A DNA stretch of 32,000 nucleotides from Frederiksenia canicola (GCF_011455495.1 NZ_CP015029.1:712740-744739); one strand, 5' to 3'. Positions 3,295 to 14,990 are shown, counted from the stretch's first letter. Numbers and translations: made by a program. Notes: generated by a model from the letters alone, not told the origin.

Positions 3295-5190
3295 TTATAC
3301 CATCCAGCAAGAACAGCCTAATGCACCGAAGAAACTTTTTAGGTCTGAACTTGGAATAGATGATCCCCAAGCTTTTGCGTGATCATGTCCATGTAATCCG
3401 CAAGAGCTTGCACAACCACAGCTAGCAATGGCTTGTTGGCGAATTGGTGAAAGTGAGTTTTTGCCTGCACCTTCAGGATCGCCCCAAGCGGCAAAGCCTT
3501 TAAATTTGCGAGTTGGTGACCAATCTGGCATCGCTGGCGGAAGTGGATTTTCATCTAAGGAAGCAAAGTCTCCATCACCAAACACAATACGTCCACCCAC
3601 AACGGTTAAATGTGAGGTTAAGAAAGAAATCTCATCTTCTGGAACAGTAAAGTAATCTTTACTTGGCACGATGAAATCCGCAAATTGCCCTACTTCAATA
3701 CGTCCACGTTTGCCTTCTTCATTAGAGAACCAAGCCACATTTTCCGTCCACATACGCAGAGCGGTTTCACGATCAAGTAAATTGCGTTGTGGATATAAAT
3801 GCGTACCGCCAACGGTGTTACCTGTAGTGAGCCAAGAGAGCGATACCCAAGGATTATAGGAAGCAACACGGGTTGCATCTGTTCCTGCCGATGTTTTCAC
3901 GCCGCTTTCCAAAATACGTTTAACAGGTGGTGTCGCTTCTGCGGCAACCGCACCATAACGCTCGACAAAATATTCCCCTTGATATGCCATACGATGTTGT
4001 ACAGCAACGCCACCGCCTAATTCGGCAATACGGTCAATGGATTTTTCGGAAATGGTTTCTGCATGGTCAAAGAACCAGTTAATGCCTTTTAGTGGAATAT
4101 CCTTATTTACTTTCTCAAACACATCTAAGGCACGAGAAATCGTTTCATCGTAAGTGGCGTGTAAACGCCAAGGCCATTTGTTTTCGGCAAGAATACGCAC
4201 CACTTCTTCCAAATCACCTTCCATTTCAGGCGGCATATCTGGACGTGGTTGGCGGAAGTCTTCAAAGTCTGCCGCTGAGAACACCAACATTTCCCCCGCA
4301 CCATTGTGACGGAAATAGTCTGTACCTTGCTTATATTTCACCGAAGATGTCCAACGTAAGAAGTCTTCTTTCTCTTCTTTTGGCTTTTGCGTAAATAAGT
4401 TATAGGCAATACGCACAGTGAGCTGATTTTCGTCCGATAATTTTTGAATGACTTCATAATTATCAGGATAATTTTGGAAACCACCGCCTGCATCAATCAC
4501 GCCCGTTACGCCTAAGCGGTTCAGTTCACGCATAAAATGGCGAGTAGAGTTGAGCTGATACTCAAAGGGTAATTTTGGTCCTTTAGCAAGGGTTGAATAT
4601 AAAATCATCGCATTCGGTTTAGCCAATAATAAGCCCGTTGGATTGCCCTTGCTATCACGCAGAATTTCACCGCCCACAGGATTTGGCGTATCTTTGGTAT
4701 AACCCACCGCTCTTAATGCTGCACCATTTAATAGTGCACGATCATAAAGGTGCAAAATAAAGACTGGCGTATCTGGTGCAATAGCGTTGATTTCTTGAAT
4801 AGTTGGCAGGCGTTTTTCTACGAATTGATGTTCCGTAAAACCACCGACCACACGCACCCATTGCGGAGCAGGCGTAATATCCACTTGTGCTTTGAGCATT
4901 GCCATTGCATCAGCAAGGCTACGAACGCCGTCCCAACGTAATTCTAAGTTGTAATTCAAACCGCCACGAATAATGTGGGTATGGTTATCAAATAAGCCTG
5001 GCAGAACACCCTTGCCTTTCAGGTCGATACAACGTGTTTTTTCAGTGGCAAGTGGCATCACTTCCGCATCGCTACCCACTGCTAAAAATTTGCCGTCTTT
5101 GATCGCAACCGCTTGAGCAACAGGTTGTGCACGATTAAGCGTAGTGATTTTTCCGTTATAGAAAATGAGATCAGGAATTTGTACTGTCAT
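3295..5190 (-). CDS. Amidohydrolase-3 family metal-dependent hydrolase (YtcJ-like) with a Cys/His-rich C-terminal tail
   Basis: 631-aa ORF. The N-terminus (LIFYNGKITTL...AVAIKDGKFLAVGSD...GLFDNHTHIIRGG) shows the typical amidohydrolase beta-sandwich plus HxH metal motif. The tail reads CGCASSCGLHGHDHAKAW...GALGCSCWMV. Confidence 0.85.
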   Translation of the reverse strand: MTVQIPDLIFYNGKITTLNRAQPVAQAVAIKDGKFLAVGSDAEVMPLATEKTRCIDLKGKGVLPGLFDNHTHIIRGGLNYNLELRWDGVRSLADAMAMLKAQVDITPAPQWVRVVGGFTEHQFVEKRLPTIQEINAIAPDTPVFILHLYDRALLNGAALRAVGYTKDTPNPVGGEILRDSKGNPTGLLLAKPNAMILYSTLAKGPKLPFEYQLNSTRHFMRELNRLGVTGVIDAGGGFQNYPDNYEVIQKLSDENQLTVRIAYNLFTQKPKEEKEDFLRWTSSVKYKQGTDYFRHNGAGEMLVFSAADFEDFRQPRPDMPPEMEGDLEEVVRILAENKWPWRLHATYDETISRALDVFEKVNKDIPLKGINWFFDHAETISEKSIDRIAELGGGVAVQHRMAYQGEYFVERYGAVAAEATPPVKRILESGVKTSAGTDATRVASYNPWVSLSWLTTGNTVGGTHLYPQRNLLDRETALRMWTENVAWFSNEEGKRGRIEVGQFADFIVPSKDYFTVPEDEISFLTSHLTVVGGRIVFGDGDFASLDENPLPPAMPDWSPTRKFKGFAAWGDPEGAGKNSLSPIRQQAIASCGCASSCGLHGHDHAKAWGSSIPSSDLKSFFGALGCSCWMV

Positions 5191-7843: not shown

Positions 7844-8917
7844 ATGTGGCTTACTTTTCTCTCCGTCATTATTGTCTCATTCACAACATTGATTGTCATG
7901 CGTCCCGTGGCACAGTGGATTGGTTTAGTCGATAAACCGAATTTCCGTAAACGCCATCAGGGCGTCATTCCCTTGATTGGTGGGATTGCCCTTTTTCTCG
8001 GTAATCTCACTTTTTACCTGATGCAGTGGGAACAGATGAAGTTCCCCGAACTCTATCTTTCTGCGGTGACAATTTTATTAGTGATCGGTGTGTTAGACGA
8101 CCGTTTCGACATCAGCCCATTTTTGCGGGCGGGCATTCAAGCTGCATTGGCGGGAGCAATGATTTACAGTGGATTGTCTATCGCCAGCTTGGGTCAGCTT
8201 ATCGCCCCTTTCAGCTTGGAACTTGGAGCGGTTGGTGTGGTGCTGACGGTGTTTATCACTATCGGAATCATCAACGCCTTCAATATGATTGACGGTATTG
8301 ACGGTTTGTTGGCAGGTCTGTCGAGCGTTAGTTTTGCGGGCATCGGGATTTTGATGTGGCTCGATGATCAATATACGCTAGCGTACTGGTGTTTCGGTAT
8401 TATCTGCGTGCTGCTGCCGTATGCGATGTTCAACCTGAGTGTTTTCGGGGCGAAGTGGAAAGTGTTTATGGGCGACTCGGGCAGCACGCTCATCGGCTTT
8501 ACGATTATTTGGATTTTGCTACTTAGTACACAAGGACAAGGGCACGCCATTAGCCCAATCACGGGGTTATGGCTGATTGCCGTGCCGCTGATTGATATGG
8601 TGGCGATTATTTTCCGTCGCCTGAAAAAGGGGAAAAGTCCGTTCCGCCCAGACCGCTTGCACATTCACCATTTAATGATGCGTGCGGGGCTCACTTCTCG
8701 CCAAGCCCTTGCGGTGATTACCTTCGGCTCGGCACTCTGTGCGGGCTTCGGGATTTTAGGCGAAGTCTATTACTGGAACCAATGGGTGATGTTCGTTTGC
8801 TTTATCTCCCTGTTTTTTCTCTATTCCTATTCGATTATGCACGCCTGGCGTATCACCCGTTTTGTCCGCCGCCACAAACGCCGTTTGCGTAAAAAACAAG
8901 GGAACGTGAAGTCATGA
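7844..8917 (+). CDS. wecA: UDP-GlcNAc:undecaprenyl-phosphate GlcNAc-1-phosphate transferase
   Basis: 357 aa. It contains GLVDKPNFRKRHQG, DDRFDI, NAFNMIDGIDGL, VFMGDSGSTLIGF and SPFRPDRLHIHH, collinear with E. coli WecA. 7844 is the first ATG after an in-frame stop at 7820. Confidence 0.95.
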   Translation: MWLTFLSVIIVSFTTLIVMRPVAQWIGLVDKPNFRKRHQGVIPLIGGIALFLGNLTFYLMQWEQMKFPELYLSAVTILLVIGVLDDRFDISPFLRAGIQAALAGAMIYSGLSIASLGQLIAPFSLELGAVGVVLTVFITIGIINAFNMIDGIDGLLAGLSSVSFAGIGILMWLDDQYTLAYWCFGIICVLLPYAMFNLSVFGAKWKVFMGDSGSTLIGFTIIWILLLSTQGQGHAISPITGLWLIAVPLIDMVAIIFRRLKKGKSPFRPDRLHIHHLMMRAGLTSRQALAVITFGSALCAGFGILGEVYYWNQWVMFVCFISLFFLYSYSIMHAWRITRFVRRHKRRLRKKQGNVKS

Positions 8918-9660
8918 TGGGATTTGCAAAAAATACAGCGAAACTGACCGCTTGTATCGCTCTTGGTGCTGCGGTTGGTTTTGGTTTGGCTGAAATCCAA
9001 ACGCCACAATGGCGAACCACCGCTCAATTCGACCAACCTACCGTCCAAGAGCTCGGCAACTACTATGCATTAGCCAGCACTTACCATTTGGTAAGCGGTG
9101 AGAAAATCGATCAATTTGACCAATGGCTAAGTGAAAAAAGCTACGGCGAGTTTAAACGAAATTTGACTTCGCCTGATGTGATCAAACAGTTTCTAACCGA
9201 AAAAATGCAACCTGAGCAACTTATCAATGCATTTCAGTTTGATGCAAAAACGCAACAACTGCATTTGACCTTAAGCCACCGTGAAACTGCCAAACCGTTG
9301 CTGGACGAATTTATTCAATACGCCAATTTACGTAGCCGAGCGGCGCTTAATGGTGAGCTGATTAGTCAATGGAAGGTGCTATTCCAACAAGTGAAAACGG
9401 CTGCGGAAACCAATTTGGGCGCCATCCAAAATGGCTCACACATCGCTGCACAAGACTGGAACGGCAAATTGACTCTCATGAAATCGGTGCAGCCACTAGA
9501 CAACCAACTCATCGCCTATCGCTTAGTGCAAAGACCGAGCGTGCCTGTTCAACCCCATTCGCCTATACGAAATTTATGGATGATGATTGGGGCGGCAAGT
9601 GGTCTGCTGCTTGGCTTATTTTCTCTTTCACTTGCGAGCTTCCGCCGTAATGCAGCGTAA
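8914..9660 (+). CDS. wzzE: ECA chain-length modulator (WzzE-like PCP-1), short form
   Basis: 248 aa with an N-terminal and a C-terminal TM segment. The anchors [19 protein letters not shown] and [25 protein letters not shown] match the E. coli WzzE ends. The ATG overlaps the wecA stop (ATGA). Confidence 0.75.
8946..8955 (-). repeat. Apl-type USS core (GACCGCTTGT on the plus strand), with TTTGCAAAA 14 nt upstream (8923-8931)
   Basis: Exact 10-mer inside wzzE codons 4-14, translated as [11 protein letters not shown]. Confidence 0.85.
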
Positions 9661-10795
9661 AATCAAGGTGTTAAGCGTCTTTGGCACTCGCCCCGAAGCG
9701 ATAAAAATGTCGCCGATTGTGGCGGCGTTAGCCCAAGATCCCACTTTTGATGCCAACGTGTGTGTGACGGGGCAGCATCGTCAAATGCTAGATCAAGTGC
9801 TTGATTTATTTGCGATCTCGCCTGATTTCGATCTGAACATTATGAAATCAGGGCAGAGCTTGGCGGACATTACCGCTCAAATCTTGCTCGAGCTGCCTGC
9901 GGTTTTAACCGCATGTTCTCCTGATATTGTACTTGTACACGGCGATACTACCACAACGTTTGCCGCTACTTTGGCGTGCTTTTACCAAAAAATCCCTGTC
10001 GCTCACATCGAAGCAGGGCTACGCACCTACGATCTGCATTCTCCTTTTCCTGAAGAAGCCAACCGCCATTTGACGAGCGTGTTGGCGGCGTATCATTTCG
10101 CCCCAACGGAAAATGCCAAGCAGAATTTACTGGCGGAAAATATCCCAGCGGATCGGATTTTTGTGGTCGGTAACAGCGTGATTGATGCCTTGCTCAACGC
10201 TTTGCAAAAAATCCGCCGAAACCCACCGCTTGCTGAACAGCTTGCTTGCCGTTATTCGTTTTTAGATGACCACAAAAAATTGATTTTGGTCACGGGACAT
10301 CGGCGGGAAAATATCGGCAAAGGCTTTGAACGTATCTGTTTGGCGTTAGCAGAAATCGCCCGCCAGCAGCCAGAGGTGCAAATTGTGTTCCCTGTGCATC
10401 TCAACCCACAGGTCGGCGAGCCAGTCAATCGCTTGTTGAGCGGCATTGAGAACCTGTTTTTACTCGAACCGCAGGATTACCTGCCGTTTATCTACTTAAT
10501 GGATAGGGCTTATTTGGTACTGACGGACTCGGGCGGCATTCAGGAAGAGGCTTCCGCCCTAGGCACGCCTGTGTTGGTGATGCGAGAGACTAGCGAACGT
10601 ACGGAAGCTATCGCTACAGGCTCGGTAAAATTAGTTGGCACCCAAACTGCCAACATCGTCCAAGCGGTCAATCAACTGCTTCATAACAAGACGAGTTACC
10701 GCCAAATGATCCAAGCTCACAGCCCTTACGGCGACGGTAAAACAAGCGAAAGCGTGGTACGGATTTTGAAAAATGTAGGAAACCATTTAGTGTAG
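9650..10795 (+). CDS. wecB: UDP-N-acetylglucosamine 2-epimerase
   Basis: I trimmed the track ORF (TTG at 9587) to the ATG at 9650. The product [24 protein letters not shown]...[13 protein letters not shown]...HGDTTT...DSGGIQEEA is a canonical WecB. Confidence 0.95.
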
Positions 10796-10898
10796 GGACG
10801 GAGCTGCGTATTCTCCCGAAAACAAGTGGTCAAATTTATTCAAGAATTTGCAAAGCATGTTCTGGGCGGAGACATAGACCGCTCCTACAACATATAGA

Positions 10899-12143
10899 AT
10901 GTCTATGAAAATGAAAAAAAACCAACGTATTTCCATCATTGGCTTAGGTTATATCGGTTTGCCTACGGCAGCGGTGTTTGCCCAAAGTGGTTGCCGCGTG
11001 ATTGGCGTGGACAGCAATCCACAGGTGGTGGAAACCCTAAACCAAGGCAAAATTCACATTCACGAGCCACAGTTGGCAGAGGCGGTGCAACAAGCGGTCA
11101 GTTCTGGGCGATTTTTTGCAACGCTCACCCCCCAACCTGCGGACGCCTTTATCATCGCCGTGCCTACGCCGTTCCAAGCGGATCATCAGCCCGATTTGAG
11201 TTATATCCAAGCGGCGATTGAAAGCCTTGCTCCAGTGTTGAATAACGGTAATTTGATTGTGTTGGAATCAACCTCTCCTGTTGGCACGACGGAAAAACTT
11301 GCCGAATGGCTAACGGCATTACGCCCCGATCTCACCGATCAACTCTTTTTTGCTTACTGCCCAGAACGTGTGCTACCCGGCAACATTATGCAAGAAATCT
11401 ACCACAACGACCGCATTATCGGCGGGCTAACTCCCGAGAGCAGCGAACAAGCGGTCAGTTTGTATCAGCTTTTTACCAAAGGCGAATGTTTGACCACCGA
11501 CAGCCGCACCGCTGAAATGTGTAAACTCACTGAAAATGCCTTCCGTGATGTGAATATCGCCTTTGCTAACGAATTGTCGATGATTTGCGACCGCCACCAA
11601 ATCAATGTGTGGGAGCTGATCGCCCTTGCTAACCGCCACCCGCGTGTCAATATTTTGCAAGCGGGAGCTGGCGTGGGCGGGCATTGCATAGCCGTTGATC
11701 CGTGGTTTATCGTTTCGCTCGATCCAGAACAGAGCCGCTTAATCCAAACCGCTCGCCATATCAATGACCACAAACCGCAATGGCTGCGAGATAAAATCAA
11801 ACTCGCCGTTGCCGATTGTGCCGCCGCCACCGACCGAAAACCGAGCGACATCACCATCGCCTGTTTTGGCTTAGCTTTCAAAGCGGATGTGGACGATCTT
11901 CGTCACAGTCCCGCCTTGCAAATCACCGAACAACTCGCCGATTGGCACCACGGCACCTTACTGGCTGTTGAACCCTACATTACCACCTTGCCTGAGAGCC
12001 TAAACGGCAAAGCCACGCTCACCGACTTCCACACCGCGTTAGCCCAAGCAGATATTGCCGTACTGCTGGTTGATCATCATCTGTTTAAAACCGCCCAACC
12101 CACACAGCGTTGGATTGTCGATGCAAAAGGAATCTGGCAATGA
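10899..12143 (+). CDS. wecC: UDP-N-acetyl-D-mannosamine dehydrogenase
   Basis: 414 aa. It contains IGLGYIGLPTAAVFA (Rossmann fold), AVPTPF, TAEMCKLTENAFRDVNIAFANE and GGHCI. The choice among three clustered ATGs (10899, 10905, 10911) is uncertain. Confidence 0.95.
   Translation: MSMKMKKNQRISIIGLGYIGLPTAAVFAQSGCRVIGVDSNPQVVETLNQGKIHIHEPQLAEAVQQAVSSGRFFATLTPQPADAFIIAVPTPFQADHQPDLSYIQAAIESLAPVLNNGNLIVLESTSPVGTTEKLAEWLTALRPDLTDQLFFAYCPERVLPGNIMQEIYHNDRIIGGLTPESSEQAVSLYQLFTKGECLTTDSRTAEMCKLTENAFRDVNIAFANELSMICDRHQINVWELIALANRHPRVNILQAGAGVGGHCIAVDPWFIVSLDPEQSRLIQTARHINDHKPQWLRDKIKLAVADCAAATDRKPSDITIACFGLAFKADVDDLRHSPALQITEQLADWHHGTLLAVEPYITTLPESLNGKATLTDFHTALAQADIAVLLVDHHLFKTAQPTQRWIVDAKGIWQ
11090..11099 (+). 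repeat. Apl-type USS core ACAAGCGGTC, with TTTTGCAAC after 14 nt (11114-11122)
   Basis: Exact 10-mer inside wecC. Confidence 0.85.
11447..11456 (+). repeat. Apl-type USS core ACAAGCGGTC
   Basis: Exact 10-mer inside wecC. Confidence 0.85.
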
Positions 12144-12967
12144 AAATCGAACGAAATCAATGGGAAAGTGAATTTTTTGGGAGAGAGATTGGTTCGTTGA
12201 TTTTTGAGCTAGAGGATCACATTCTGCCCCCGCTTGCGGGGGAAGTACCCTGCGAAGCAGGGAGTAGGGGGGAACAAGCGGTCAGTTTTTGCCAAAATTT
12301 TACAAATTTCCCCCCTTCGGTTTCGCTTTGTTCAACCACTTCCCCGGCAAGCGGGGGCAGAATAGAAGGTATCTCGTTGCTCCAAGCCAAAACCCCCACC
12401 ACCGATCTCAACACAATCCACTGGTTGCAACAACACGGTTTTCAACTGGTGGAAACGGAAATCACCTTTGTACTTGAATTTGCAAAATTTCCCGAGAAAC
12501 TGACCGCTTGCGAATGCCGAATTGCCGAAAAAACGGATGTCGCCGCCCTAAAAAAACTCGTTGGCTCCGCTTTTCCTCACACTCGCTTCCGTCCACCCTA
12601 TTTCAGCCAAGCAGAAAACCAACGTTTCTATGCAAAATGGATCGAAAATGCGGTGAAAGGTGAGTTTGATGATCTTTGCTTGATCGCCGAACAAGACGGC
12701 AAACTGCAAGGCACAATCAGTCTAAGATTCAACGGCAAAACCGCCAAAATTGGCTTACTTGCCGTTGCTTCCGAATTTCAACGCCAAGGCATCGCGAAGC
12801 GATTACTTTCCGCCGCCATATCACACGCCAAACACCATAATGCCGAAAATTTGCACATCACCACTCAACTGAGTAACATAGCCGCCATCTCGCTCTATCA
12901 ATCTATTGGAGCGACAATTTCTGAGACGAATTATTGGTTTTATCAATTTTTTTGTAAATATTTGTAA
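12140..12967 (+). CDS. wecD: dTDP-fucosamine acetyltransferase (WecD/RffC) carrying an in-frame insertion of about 47 aa
   Basis: I placed the start at the ATG at 12140, which overlaps the wecC stop (ATGA). The track ORF start at 12110 would overlap wecC. The N-terminal NQWESEFFG and the C-terminal FRPPYF...FYAKWIENAVKGEFD...IGLLAV...QRQGIA...YW are collinear with E. coli WecD. Confidence 0.85.
   Translation: MKIERNQWESEFFGREIGSLIFELEDHILPPLAGEVPCEAGSRGEQAVSFCQNFTNFPPSVSLCSTTSPASGGRIEGISLLQAKTPTTDLNTIHWLQQHGFQLVETEITFVLEFAKFPEKLTACECRIAEKTDVAALKKLVGSAFPHTRFRPPYFSQAENQRFYAKWIENAVKGEFDDLCLIAEQDGKLQGTISLRFNGKTAKIGLLAVASEFQRQGIAKRLLSAAISHAKHHNAENLHITTQLSNIAAISLYQSIGATISETNYWFYQFFCKYL
12221..12363 (+). 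mobile_element. MITE-like nested palindromic element carrying a USS, in-frame within wecD
   Basis: The 26-bp terminal inverted repeats (12221-12246 vs 12338-12363) are 25/26 complementary. An inner G6 (12267-12272) / C6 (12310-12315) stem encloses ACAAGCGGTC (12274-12283). A local hairpin lies at 12248-12262. Confidence 0.6.
12274..12283 (+). repeat. Apl-type USS core ACAAGCGGTC
   Basis: Exact 10-mer at the centre of the palindromic element. Confidence 0.85.
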
Positions 12968-13076
12968 GCGACATACCCTGTCAAGCAGCTTAAAAACACT
13001 TTTGTTATACTTTTCTCAATGTTAGACATCAGTATAGCTAACAGAGAATGTACTACTTATTTTCAAGGAGCTAATT

Positions 13077-13754
13077 ATGATTGCTGGAGATCATATCTAT
13101 TCCCCGAGAACGGGTTACACTCACCACGGTATTTATATCGGTAATCAACAAGTGATTCACTATTCTGGTTTTGCAAATGGAATGAATAGTGGTGAAATTT
13201 GCATTGCAGCAGTAGATGAATTTAGTAATGGAAATCCAGTGCATGTTTTGGAAAGGCCTTTCCGAGTTTTTAGCCATACTGAAACCGTAGAGCGAGCTTA
13301 TCAGCGATTAGGTGAAGACTGGTATAACGTATTACTGAATAATTGTGAACATTTTGTAAACTGGTGTATTAATGGTAAACATGAAAGTTCACAAGTGAAT
13401 GATTTAGTGGATTCTTTGCAGAAAGTAAATGATGCGGTTTCTTATTCTAAATCTCTCAGTTCACCTTCGCTCGACAGCGGGAGAATAGCAACAACAGTAC
13501 CAACTTCATCACTTCCTTTATCGTTAGGTGGGGGAGTAACCGCAATCTCTGGTTTAGCGGGAATTGCATCGACTGTGGTTGCTACGAAAATGGTTGAAGA
13601 AGTGCTTTCGGATGATAGTGAAGTTAAGCAAACGTTTGTGGATGCAGTGGATTCAACGACTGAATTTATCGGTGAAACCGTTGAGGAAGTCGGAGAAGTG
13701 ATTGATTCTGTTGTAACTGGAGCAATTGACTTTATCGGCAGTATTTTTGATTAG
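13077..13754 (+). CDS. LRAT/PLAAT-family (permuted NlpC/P60) Cys-His acyltransferase/phospholipase-like protein with a hydrophobic segment and an acidic C-terminal tail
   Basis: Strong SD AAGGAG (13065-13070), 6 nt before the ATG. The motifs GDHIY..YTHHGIYIG..VIHY and NNCEHFVNWC (His16, His28, Cys90) match the LRAT/H-RAS-like-suppressor signature. Confidence 0.8.
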   Translation: MIAGDHIYSPRTGYTHHGIYIGNQQVIHYSGFANGMNSGEICIAAVDEFSNGNPVHVLERPFRVFSHTETVERAYQRLGEDWYNVLLNNCEHFVNWCINGKHESSQVNDLVDSLQKVNDAVSYSKSLSSPSLDSGRIATTVPTSSLPLSLGGGVTAISGLAGIASTVVATKMVEEVLSDDSEVKQTFVDAVDSTTEFIGETVEEVGEVIDSVVTGAIDFIGSIFD

Positions 13755-13838
13755 TTATTCAATACGGCATGATGTAGTTATCACCTTTAATCGCTATATC
13801 ACGCCTATTTTGTTATCGTTATAACCAAAAATCATTCT

Positions 13839-14990
13839 TTGAACAGTAAGGATCTATCTATTATCCCCTTCAACCAACCCGCTTTGGTCGGGTCAGAATT
13901 AGGCTATATGCAACAAGCGATGGCAAGTGGCAGGCTGTCGGGCGATGGCGATTTTACCCGCCGCTGCGAAAGTTGGTTTGAGCAGCAATTCGGCACAGCT
14001 CGGGCGTTGTTGACGCCGTCTTGCACCGCATCGCTCGAAATGGCAGCGATTTTGCTCGATATTCAGGCAGGCGATGAAGTAATTATGCCCAGCTACACCT
14101 TTGTGTCCACCGCCAATGCCTTTGCCTTGCGGGGAGCGAAAATCGTGTTTGTAGATGTTCGCCCTGACACGATGAACATGGATGAAGGCTTAATTGAAGC
14201 GGCAATCACCCCTCGCACCAAAGCGATTGTGCCAGTGCATTACGCCGGCGTCGCGTGTGAAATGGATGCGATGATGGCGTTGGCGGAAAAATACGGCTTG
14301 TGGGTGGTGGAAGATGCCGCACAGGGCGTGATGGCGGGCTATAAAGGCAGGGCATTAGGTACTATCGGGCATTTGGGCTGTTTCAGCTTTCACGAAACCA
14401 AAAACTACACCGCAGGCGGTGAAGGTGGAGCAATCTTGATCAACGATCCTGCTTTGATCGAGCGGGCGGAGATTGTGCGAGAAAAAGGCACAGATCGCAG
14501 CCAGTTTTTCCGTGGGCAGATCGACAAATACACATGGCGGGATCTCGGTTCGAGCTTTCTCCCTTCTGAACTGCAAGCCGCATACCTTTTCGCTCAGCTA
14601 GAAAGTGCCGAGCAAATTAATCGCAAGCGACTGATTTTATGGCAAAATTACCAACAGGCCTTTGCGGCACTGGCTGCTACTGGGAGAATTGAGTTGCCAA
14701 CTATTCCGCCCGATTGCCAGCAAAACGGGCATCTTTTTTATCTTAAACTTCGCAATCTTGCCGATCGTTCAGCATTTATTGCTCACTTAAAAAAGCATAA
14801 TATTTTGGCGGTGTTTCATTATATCCCCCTACACACCAGCCCCGCAGGACAACGCTTCGGGCGTTTTGTGGGCGAAGATCGTTTCACCACTCAAGAAAGT
14901 GAACGGCTTGTGCGATTGCCGTTGTTCTATAATTTGAGCGAAGGCGATCAACAAAGGGTGATTGATGTGGCGTTGGAGTATTTTAAATGA
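13839..14990 (+). CDS. wecE: dTDP-4-amino-4,6-dideoxygalactose transaminase
   Basis: Almost collinear with E. coli WecE from IPFN onward (LLTPSCTASLEMAA, IMPSYTFVSTANAF, FSFHETKNYTAGGEGGA, YIPLH). The start is uncertain. TTG at 13839 (the track start) has no SD. ATT at 13860 has AAGGA 7 nt upstream. Confidence 0.9.
   Translation: MNSKDLSIIPFNQPALVGSELGYMQQAMASGRLSGDGDFTRRCESWFEQQFGTARALLTPSCTASLEMAAILLDIQAGDEVIMPSYTFVSTANAFALRGAKIVFVDVRPDTMNMDEGLIEAAITPRTKAIVPVHYAGVACEMDAMMALAEKYGLWVVEDAAQGVMAGYKGRALGTIGHLGCFSFHETKNYTAGGEGGAILINDPALIERAEIVREKGTDRSQFFRGQIDKYTWRDLGSSFLPSELQAAYLFAQLESAEQINRKRLILWQNYQQAFAALAATGRIELPTIPPDCQQNGHLFYLKLRNLADRSAFIAHLKKHNILAVFHYIPLHTSPAGQRFGRFVGEDRFTTQESERLVRLPLFYNLSEGDQQRVIDVALEYFK

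Follow-up and report, generated by a model that had tools for sequence, protein, structure and literature searches.

Among described proteins, those closest to the gene reported here are the mammalian enzymes PLAAT1-5 (HRASLS) and LRAT (lecithin retinol acyltransferase), which share the Pfam family PF04970, a permuted NlpC/P60 fold, a His/His/Cys triad and an NCEHF motif; in the PLAATs the N-terminal catalytic domain is followed by a C-terminal hydrophobic region. The same fold is found in the H-box/NC proteins of picornaviruses and caliciviruses (2A and NS1-2) and in the LRATs of giant viruses, and several of the viral H-box/NC proteins lack catalytic activity. On the bacterial side, Tox-Act1 and TseH, type VI secretion system (T6SS) effectors, belong to the same superfamily and have the same permutation, and for Tox-Act1 a Cys/His-dependent phospholipase activity on phosphatidylethanolamine (PE) and phosphatidylglycerol (PG) has been shown (PMC12994826). 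LnsA, of the LnsAB lipoprotein N-acylation system of Staphylococcus aureus, is a permuted NlpC/P60 acyl-transfer enzyme of the bacterial envelope that HHpred connects to PLAAT structures (PMC7387801), and YiiX and BcPPNE are further lipid-directed permuted NlpC/P60 enzymes (PMC3142127). Finally, proteins that NCBI names bacterial 'lecithin retinol acyltransferase family protein' have the LRAT domain and an Ala/Gly/Ser/Thr-rich C-terminus. In the literature we found no paper characterising any bacterial LRAT-clade protein, and any function assigned to one would therefore be new. Here we analyse such a gene from Frederiksenia canicola, a member of the Pasteurellaceae living in the dog mouth. It is located in a window of 32,000 nucleotides (NZ_CP015029.1:712740-744739, the whole stretch of DNA analysed), between wecD and wecE of the gene cluster for enterobacterial common antigen (ECA). 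We consider it probable, though well short of certain, that the locus is a single-gene mobile cassette (a leader and one open reading frame, ORF) inserted at wecD/wecE, and that it brings in a stand-alone, membrane-associated thiol phospholipase/acyltransferase as mobile accessory cargo. Sequence comparison places the gene outside ECA synthesis.

The ORF (13077-13754 including the stop; + strand, as are the other features of the junction given below) encodes 225 amino acids, and a Shine-Dalgarno sequence AAGGAG (13065-13070) can be read 6 nt upstream of its ATG. The product is 100% identical to the NCBI entry 'lecithin retinol acyltransferase family protein [Frederiksenia canicola]', and the UniRef entry has the same name. 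The original prediction had proposed an LRAT/PLAAT-type Cys-His-His enzyme with a strong Shine-Dalgarno sequence, and both the profile search and the structural superposition agree with it. PF04970 matches with 78.1 bits (E 8.8e-22, cut-off 24.3) over residues 3-102, that is, positions 5-119 of the 120 in the profile, and the catalytic domain so delimited by the Pfam match, the PLAAT2/3 alignment and the structure model lies at 13083-13382. His16 (13122-13124), His28 (13158-13160) and Cys90 of the NNCEHF motif (13344-13346) align with the human PLAAT2/3 catalytic residues His23, His35 and Cys113 in the permuted order, with His before Cys. In an alignment of 106 homologs H16, H17, H28 and C90 are, among others, invariant. 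An AlphaFold (AF2) model built from this alignment has predicted local distance difference test (pLDDT) values of 88-98 across residues 1-130, except for a surface-loop block at 31-40 (pLDDT 72). When compared with Foldseek, the model superposes on the PLAAT2/3/4 crystal structures with template modelling (TM) scores of 0.76-0.80 and root-mean-square deviations (rmsd) of 2.6-3.2 Å, and the best matches (4dpz, 4fa0, 7zom, 4dot, 7zot) span TM 0.71-0.80 and rmsd 2.6-4.8 Å. A sequence search of the PDB returned matches only to PLAAT2, PLAAT3, PLAAT4 and a PLAAT3/LRAT chimera, while the top matches of the model in a viral structure library are picornavirus H-box/NC regions and giant-virus LRATs, the former being parts of eukaryotic-virus polyproteins, unlike the present protein. 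The Pfam scan gave no domain besides LRAT/NlpC-P60-type matches, and searches of PADLOC (E <= 1), PHROGs and NCBIfam matched no specific model. Judged by its sequence and its predicted structure, the 225-aa protein is a true bacterial member of the LRAT/PLAAT family with the circularly permuted NlpC/P60 enzyme fold, although it is bacterial and only 21-28% identical to the PLAAT structures. It has no signal peptide, so that the catalytic domain should be cytoplasmic. In this it differs from LnsA, which has a signal peptide, a membrane partner (LnsB) and very weak LRAT similarity; the F. canicola protein has neither the signal peptide nor the partner.

Behind the domain come a linker of low complexity, a hydrophobic segment in which Gly and Ala abound, and an acidic tail that is conserved. 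The hydrophobic segment, rich in Gly, Ala, Ser and Thr (LPLSLGGGVTAISGLAGIASTVVATKMV, 13512-13595, located by hydropathy), may be a membrane anchor. The tail (13596-13751, delimited by conservation in the subclade) carries the motif VDST.EFIGETVEEVGEVIDSVVTGAIDFIGSIFD. Both the segment and the repeated (E/D)FIG(E/S) motif of the tail had been pointed out in the original prediction and are present in the sequence. In most homologs the hydrophobic stretch is stronger (Kyte-Doolittle mean 1.8-2.7), lies 4-20 residues from the C-terminus and is followed by K-K-x-F-D-W-x-x-D, and most bacterial homologs look, from this arrangement, to be tail-anchored as PLAATs are. The Frederiksenia subclade ends differently, with a weaker hydrophobic segment and then a conserved acidic tail of 52 residues, VDST..EFIGE..IDFIGSIFD, which sets it apart both from the PLAATs, which have no such tail, and from most of the bacterial members named by NCBI. 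The repeated EFIGE/DFIGS motif is conserved in this small subclade (P0002-4, P0034, P0038, P0161). When the tail alone was searched against 1.84 billion representative sequences, the matches were LRAT proteins of the subclade and two spurious repeat proteins, and the tail is therefore not a module common to other enzymes.

To see what the gene displaced, the window was aligned with the closest relative reached through WecD homologs, Pasteurellaceae bacterium Orientalotternb1 (locus L092), whose WecD is 88% identical to that of the window and whose wecD and wecE share an ATGA overlap, with nothing inserted. Homology stops at 12944 and restarts at 13863, with flanks that are 88-95% identical. 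The insertion thus measures 918 bp (12945-13862) and replaces 10 bp, GATGAAACAA, which held the wecD stop and the wecE ATG. These boundaries are nearly the same as the 12947-13862 of the original prediction, and loss of the stop and the ATG accounts for the two scars that it had listed at the junction. The final 23 nt of wecD (12945-12967) are insert DNA, so WecD ends in YWFYQFFCKYL in place of the YR found in the relatives compared (L092 and Enterobacterales), and the IPFNQP start of WecE has no ATG or GTG before it. The insert recurs, at 99.8-100% identity, in four further assemblies or sequencing runs of F. canicola, and at least five assemblies or runs of the species encode an identical LRAT protein. 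The junction is uninterrupted in six Enterobacterales and in Mannheimia granulomatis. The comparison across strains and species thus places the gene at the junction in F. canicola and finds it absent from the insert-free relatives, and horizontal acquisition, as originally proposed, is supported by this alignment evidence. No second plausible ORF was found within the 918 bp, which hold one ORF only, and an Rfam scan of the insert gave no match. The insert has no transposase, a repeat scan gave no convincing terminal repeats or target-site duplication at 12945/13862, only an ATC microhomology, and the insert does not qualify as a classical mobile element (insertion sequence, transposon or integron cassette).

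The composition of the insert had also been taken as a sign of foreign origin, and this argument stands in part. The LRAT gene has a GC fraction of 0.398 and a GC fraction at third codon positions (GC3) of 0.279, against 0.46-0.52 and 0.45-0.59 in the ECA genes, and the contrast with these genes is real. The remaining genes of the window have GC 0.36-0.48 and GC3 0.31-0.47, so part of the contrast reflects the GC-rich ECA cluster itself; relative to the other 17 genes in the window taken together, the LRAT gene has a GC3 z-score of -2.3. Similarly, the uptake signal sequence core ACAAGCGGT is indeed missing from the insert (0 copies, against 9 in the 10.2-kb ECA cluster), but since only about 0.8 copies are expected per 0.9 kb, this absence is not significant by itself and is uninformative on foreign origin. 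We also compared the window with a second F. canicola strain, L001, from which an 11.4-kb region differs by 1.7% (14 differences in 805 bp of wecD and 32 in 1,128 bp of wecE). A run of 1,016 bp free of single nucleotide polymorphisms (SNPs; 12767-13781) covers the LRAT gene, and a recent spread is only suggested by it. As proof of a recent sweep the SNP deficit was rejected, because a 500-bp bin at 16077-16576 is SNP-free as well. The run, the absence of the gene from the sister species and a GC3 of 0.279 with no compositional amelioration would all fit an inert passenger, i.e., a recent hitch-hiker that has no function in this host and is tolerated since it does not block read-through of the operon. 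We find this most improbable. The ORF is intact with all the family-invariant residues, a strong Shine-Dalgarno sequence and a conserved leader with a promoter-like element, and the protein does not vary among the assemblies or runs. Also, relative to its homolog at L232 (an LRAT locus of another organism whose protein is 58-64% identical to that of the window), the rate of non-synonymous substitution in the LRAT domain (dN 0.14) is far under the synonymous rate (dS), which is saturated.

In related species, likewise reached through WecD homologs, the same junction has different contents. In Ursidibacter sp. (L094, 5758-7434) and in a metagenomic relative (L093, 5844-7196) it holds an HTH_3 (DicA-like) regulator gene divergent from genes of 63 aa, 145 aa (YbjN-like) and 172 aa. 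In Haemophilus paracuniculus (L103) it holds an AT-rich gene that about 17 tandem CAAG repeats (4920-4985) split into ORFs of 86 and 210 aa. Orientalotternb1, Mannheimia and the Enterobacterales have an empty junction. Because the cargos in L093, L094 and L103 are unrelated, and because the site is empty in Mannheimia and Enterobacterales, the wecD-wecE junction of Pasteurellaceae is, on the available sequences, a recurrent insertion hot spot, and the LRAT gene, for the same reason, is better seen as mobile cargo standing outside the sugar pathway. The H. paracuniculus gene gave no Pfam, NCBIfam or PADLOC match, and PADLOC and NCBIfam matched no known system in the cargos of L093, L094 and L103. 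The insert of F. canicola also has a mosaic make-up, since it has its left leader in common with L232 and its right 70 bp with the L093 junction. These 70 bp (13793-13862, the wecE leader, found by blastn and alignment) are 90% identical to L093 while the adjoining wecD and wecE are just 72-73% identical. The most economical inference is that cargo is swapped by homologous recombination between conserved wecD/wecE arms in naturally transformable bacteria.

A role of the gene in ECA synthesis had been suggested originally (lipid remodelling connected with the PG-linked form or O-acylation of the glycan), and in its wider form it would include acyl chains on the ECA-PG anchor, O-acylation of the glycan, or an N-acylation of Fuc4N that replaces the acetylation by WecD. 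The gene shares the orientation of its neighbours wecD and wecE and lacks a strong terminator, and PLAATs catalyse both O- and N-acyl transfer. The (CAAG)n repeat of the H. paracuniculus cargo could point the same way: such repeats are typical of Haemophilus contingency genes, so some of the junction cargo may be surface-glycan related, and that gene does look like a phase-variable contingency gene on its sequence. Yet the sister species, Mannheimia and all the Enterobacterales junctions examined lack the gene, and other Pasteurellaceae have unrelated cargo at the same place. Its homologs occur in groups outside Enterobacterales and Pasteurellales (Methylococcales, Massilia, Cupriavidus, Acinetobacter, Moraxella, Aeromonas), and no wec genes were seen at any homolog locus inspected. 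Among the loci examined only F. canicola has the LRAT gene inside an ECA operon. The other Pasteurellaceae homolog (RH1A) has trkH on one side and the S10 ribosomal operon on the other. The F. canicola protein lacks a signal peptide and would act in the cytoplasm, against late ECA steps that are periplasmic. An ECA-linked acyltransferase is for these reasons highly improbable, and the ECA-linked roles first suggested find no backing in the comparison. As the comparative evidence is against any ECA link, the locus does not make the question of the ECA-PG transferase testable either. In other words, position inside the operon did not indicate the function of this gene, a lesson for annotation at wecD-wecE.

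At E <= 1e-3 the search gave 377 homologs, most of them with a length of 200-290 aa, from Methylococcales, Massilia, Cupriavidus, Chitinibacter, Aeromonas, Acinetobacter, Moraxella, Pantoea, Pectobacterium and others. In all of them an Ala/Gly/Ser/Thr-rich region comes after the N-terminal LRAT domain. PLAAT/LRAT proteins have a sizeable bacterial branch with the two-part layout of the animal enzymes, and it behaves as a mobile, partner-less accessory gene. For the context analysis 140 homolog loci were collapsed to 95 non-redundant groups, and 109 immediate neighbours were scanned with Pfam and PADLOC. No neighbour family occurs in more than 6 of the 95 groups, which means that no conserved partner gene was found and the LRAT gene is partner-less; nor do glycan or polysaccharide genes recur among the clustered groups or the 109 scanned neighbours. 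The gene is carried by 38 plasmid records and by 48 IMG/VR contigs, where it adjoins terminase, portal and lysozyme genes. Two further matches in a phage database were set aside, as the records are evidently Acinetobacter chromosome (putA, trmA, tktA, metK). Some homologs have the surroundings of integrative elements, among them Gp3-like recombination directionality factors, DUF2787 and RadC. Others have housekeeping contexts, such as trkH and the S10 operon, alr, or thioesterase genes. This scattered distribution over plasmids, prophages and the vicinity of defence genes suggests an accessory or conflict-type function over a housekeeping one.

A stand-alone anti-phage or abortive-infection effector would be kept inactive, perhaps by its tail, and would attack inner-membrane phospholipid on infection in the way of CapV, the patatin effector of CBASS (cyclic oligonucleotide-based anti-phage signalling system). 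A small ORF (102-119 aa) and the LRAT gene form a conserved module that, in plasmids of Acinetobacter and Moraxella, stands directly upstream of a viperin-family gene (pVip), and on a third plasmid this module precedes genes for a 1274-aa AAA protein and a PIN protein, with a DarT gene nearby (L095 4609-6946, L096 4604-7356, L100 4650-9758). Each of the three plasmids has recombinase genes in the vicinity. The Pseudomonas luteola plasmid copy is flanked by McrBC and a resolvase and the Cupriavidus copy by a prophage end and a RelA/SpoT-like gene, and the distribution as a whole is sporadic and tied to mobile elements. At least 10 of the 109 immediate neighbours match PADLOC models (pVip, DarT, McrBC, type I restriction-modification, MkoA and PDC candidates), a count that has no background control, and the association of the homologs with defence genes is only suggestive. 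The pVip cases may also be one shared element, many homologs are surrounded by housekeeping genes, and neither the LRAT protein itself nor the cargos at the hot spot in other Pasteurellaceae match a defence model. No paper linking LRAT to phage defence was found in the literature, which also counts against this explanation. We regard it as unlikely, though worth keeping in view. The broader proposal that bacterial LRAT/PLAAT proteins are stand-alone membrane-attacking immune effectors on mobile elements, some of them viperin-linked, with the subclade tail keeping the phospholipase silent until infection, is rather unlikely. Were it true, these proteins would be the prokaryotic counterpart of the animal PLAATs, of which PLAAT4/RARRES3 acts in pathogen restriction.

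An antibacterial or addiction-type toxin, either a phospholipase effector like Tox-Act1/TseH or a selfish toxic gene such as the original prediction had allowed for, was considered as well, given that the T6SS includes phospholipase toxins among the related permuted NlpC/P60 enzymes (PMC12994826). One homolog, on a Pectobacterium plasmid, has a colicin-like pore-former and the immunity gene of the latter in its neighbourhood, and the cassette is AT-rich and mobile. We nevertheless consider a toxin quite improbable. Tox-Act1 and TseH form separate clades, are secreted by T6SS, act in the periplasm and are encoded with immunity proteins, none of which applies to the F. canicola case, and the published tree places LRAT apart from them, as lipid metabolism (PMC12994826). 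The insert holds no immunity-like ORF, as had been noted from the start, and no partner is conserved across the 95 groups. With no signal peptide and no extra Pfam domain nothing marks the protein as a secreted effector, and it is identical in all the F. canicola assemblies seen, again with no partner gene.

For the stand-alone phospholipase/acyltransferase cargo that we prefer, a mechanism may be proposed by analogy with PLAAT/LRAT biochemistry. Cys90 would attack, from the cytoplasmic face, an acyl ester in a glycerophospholipid (PE or PG) of the inner membrane, giving a thioester acyl-enzyme. The acyl group could then pass to water, as in a phospholipase A1/2, or to an acceptor, as in an O- or N-acyltransferase. 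Selection would meanwhile have kept the ECA operon working, with the cassette co-oriented, no strong terminator, and a new Shine-Dalgarno sequence and ATT start for wecE. Several observations weigh against this account. A constitutively active cytoplasmic phospholipase should be harmful to the cell, and we found in the literature no activity, localisation or expression data for bacterial LRAT-clade proteins. The best 19-residue Kyte-Doolittle mean of the window protein is 1.56, which is borderline, and it lies 57 residues from the C-terminus. Also, the C-terminal half has low confidence in both structure predictions, with pLDDT below 55 for the tail with the deep alignment and below 40 with a subclade-only alignment, and below 50 for the hydrophobic segment. 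Because the segment is borderline and the model confidence low, membrane anchoring in the Frederiksenia subclade is something that we infer. To these may be added the part of the compositional contrast that is due to the GC-rich ECA cluster, and the defence-related neighbours, which at about 10% lack a proper background control and stand beside many housekeeping neighbours.

As for expression, the signals of the cassette modify what was predicted of its transcription. A leader motif at 12954-12985 appears to travel with the LRAT gene, being about 85% identical upstream of the L232 homolog. Within the same alignment, columns 13003-13011 are invariant and read TGnTATACT, an extended -10-like element that precedes the LRAT ATG by about 65 nt; it is a candidate cassette promoter, although a strict two-hexamer promoter scan did not call it. 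Directly after the LRAT stop and before wecE, RNA folding gives an AU-rich hairpin followed by UAUUUUGUU (13766-13815; -19 kcal/mol, z -2.36 against shuffles), which is weakly terminator- or attenuator-like. The original prediction saw no terminator on either side and expected cotranscription with the ECA genes. A consensus (G+C-rich) terminator scan did call none, but the AU-rich hairpin with its U-tract exists and might serve, ahead of wecE, as a weak terminator or attenuator. Cotranscription of the LRAT gene with the ECA genes thus stays plausible, with the qualification that the cassette has its own conserved -10-like element and this weak hairpin.

The flanking genes are assigned without difficulty, wecD (dTDP-Fuc4N acetyltransferase) to 12140-12967 by NCBIfam PRK10975 (E 6e-72) and wecE (dTDP-4-keto-6-deoxyglucose aminotransferase) to 13860-14990 by TIGR02379 (E 4e-205). 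For the wecE start, an ATT at 13860 is preceded by AAGGA (13848-13852) with a spacing of 7 nt, and the arrangement of AAGGA, 7 nt and ATT ATC CCC TTC AAC before the IPFNQP of WecE is conserved in the window, L093 and L094. The gene call in the NCBI assembly of Ursidibacter (L094) starts at the position equivalent to 13860. An alternative start at TTG 13839 has no Shine-Dalgarno sequence, and position 1 of TIGR02379 corresponds to residue 8 of the TTG ORF. Since the ribosome-binding sequence and the ATT are conserved in L093 and L094, the Ursidibacter call matches and the TTG has no Shine-Dalgarno sequence, the non-canonical ATT 13860 is the best candidate and is probably where wecE starts. Four F. 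canicola gene calls start wecE at ATG 13908, giving 360 aa with the loss of 16 conserved residues; wecE probably survives the insertion through an ATT start that gene callers miss.

The cluster around the insert (7844-18061) has the order wecA, a wzzE-like gene, wecB, wecC, wecD, the LRAT ORF, wecE, wecF, wzyE and wecG, and is followed by tRNAs and an rRNA operon. It has no wzxE flippase gene between wecE and wecF and no rffG/rffH. In H. paracuniculus a Polysacc_synt gene follows wecE (L103 6791-8047). The GC3 of the ECA genes exceeds that of the window's other genes, and WecE has 74% protein identity to that of Buttiauxella; the whole cluster may be of Enterobacterales-like origin.

A second element was observed inside wecD. 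At 12221-12363 lies a 143-bp palindromic sequence resembling a miniature inverted-repeat transposable element (MITE), with terminal inverted repeats of 26 nt that are 96% complementary, and it carries an uptake signal sequence. It is read in frame, which gives a WecD of 275 aa against about 220-235 aa in relatives, and it resembles the in-frame palindromic elements of Rickettsia. Orientalotternb1 has the element at the same site, where one missing C splits wecD into 74 and 195 aa, and the wecD of L093 has it at the same codon, in frame and in the inverted orientation. Its terminal repeat is found again at L093 8410 and at L103 2279.

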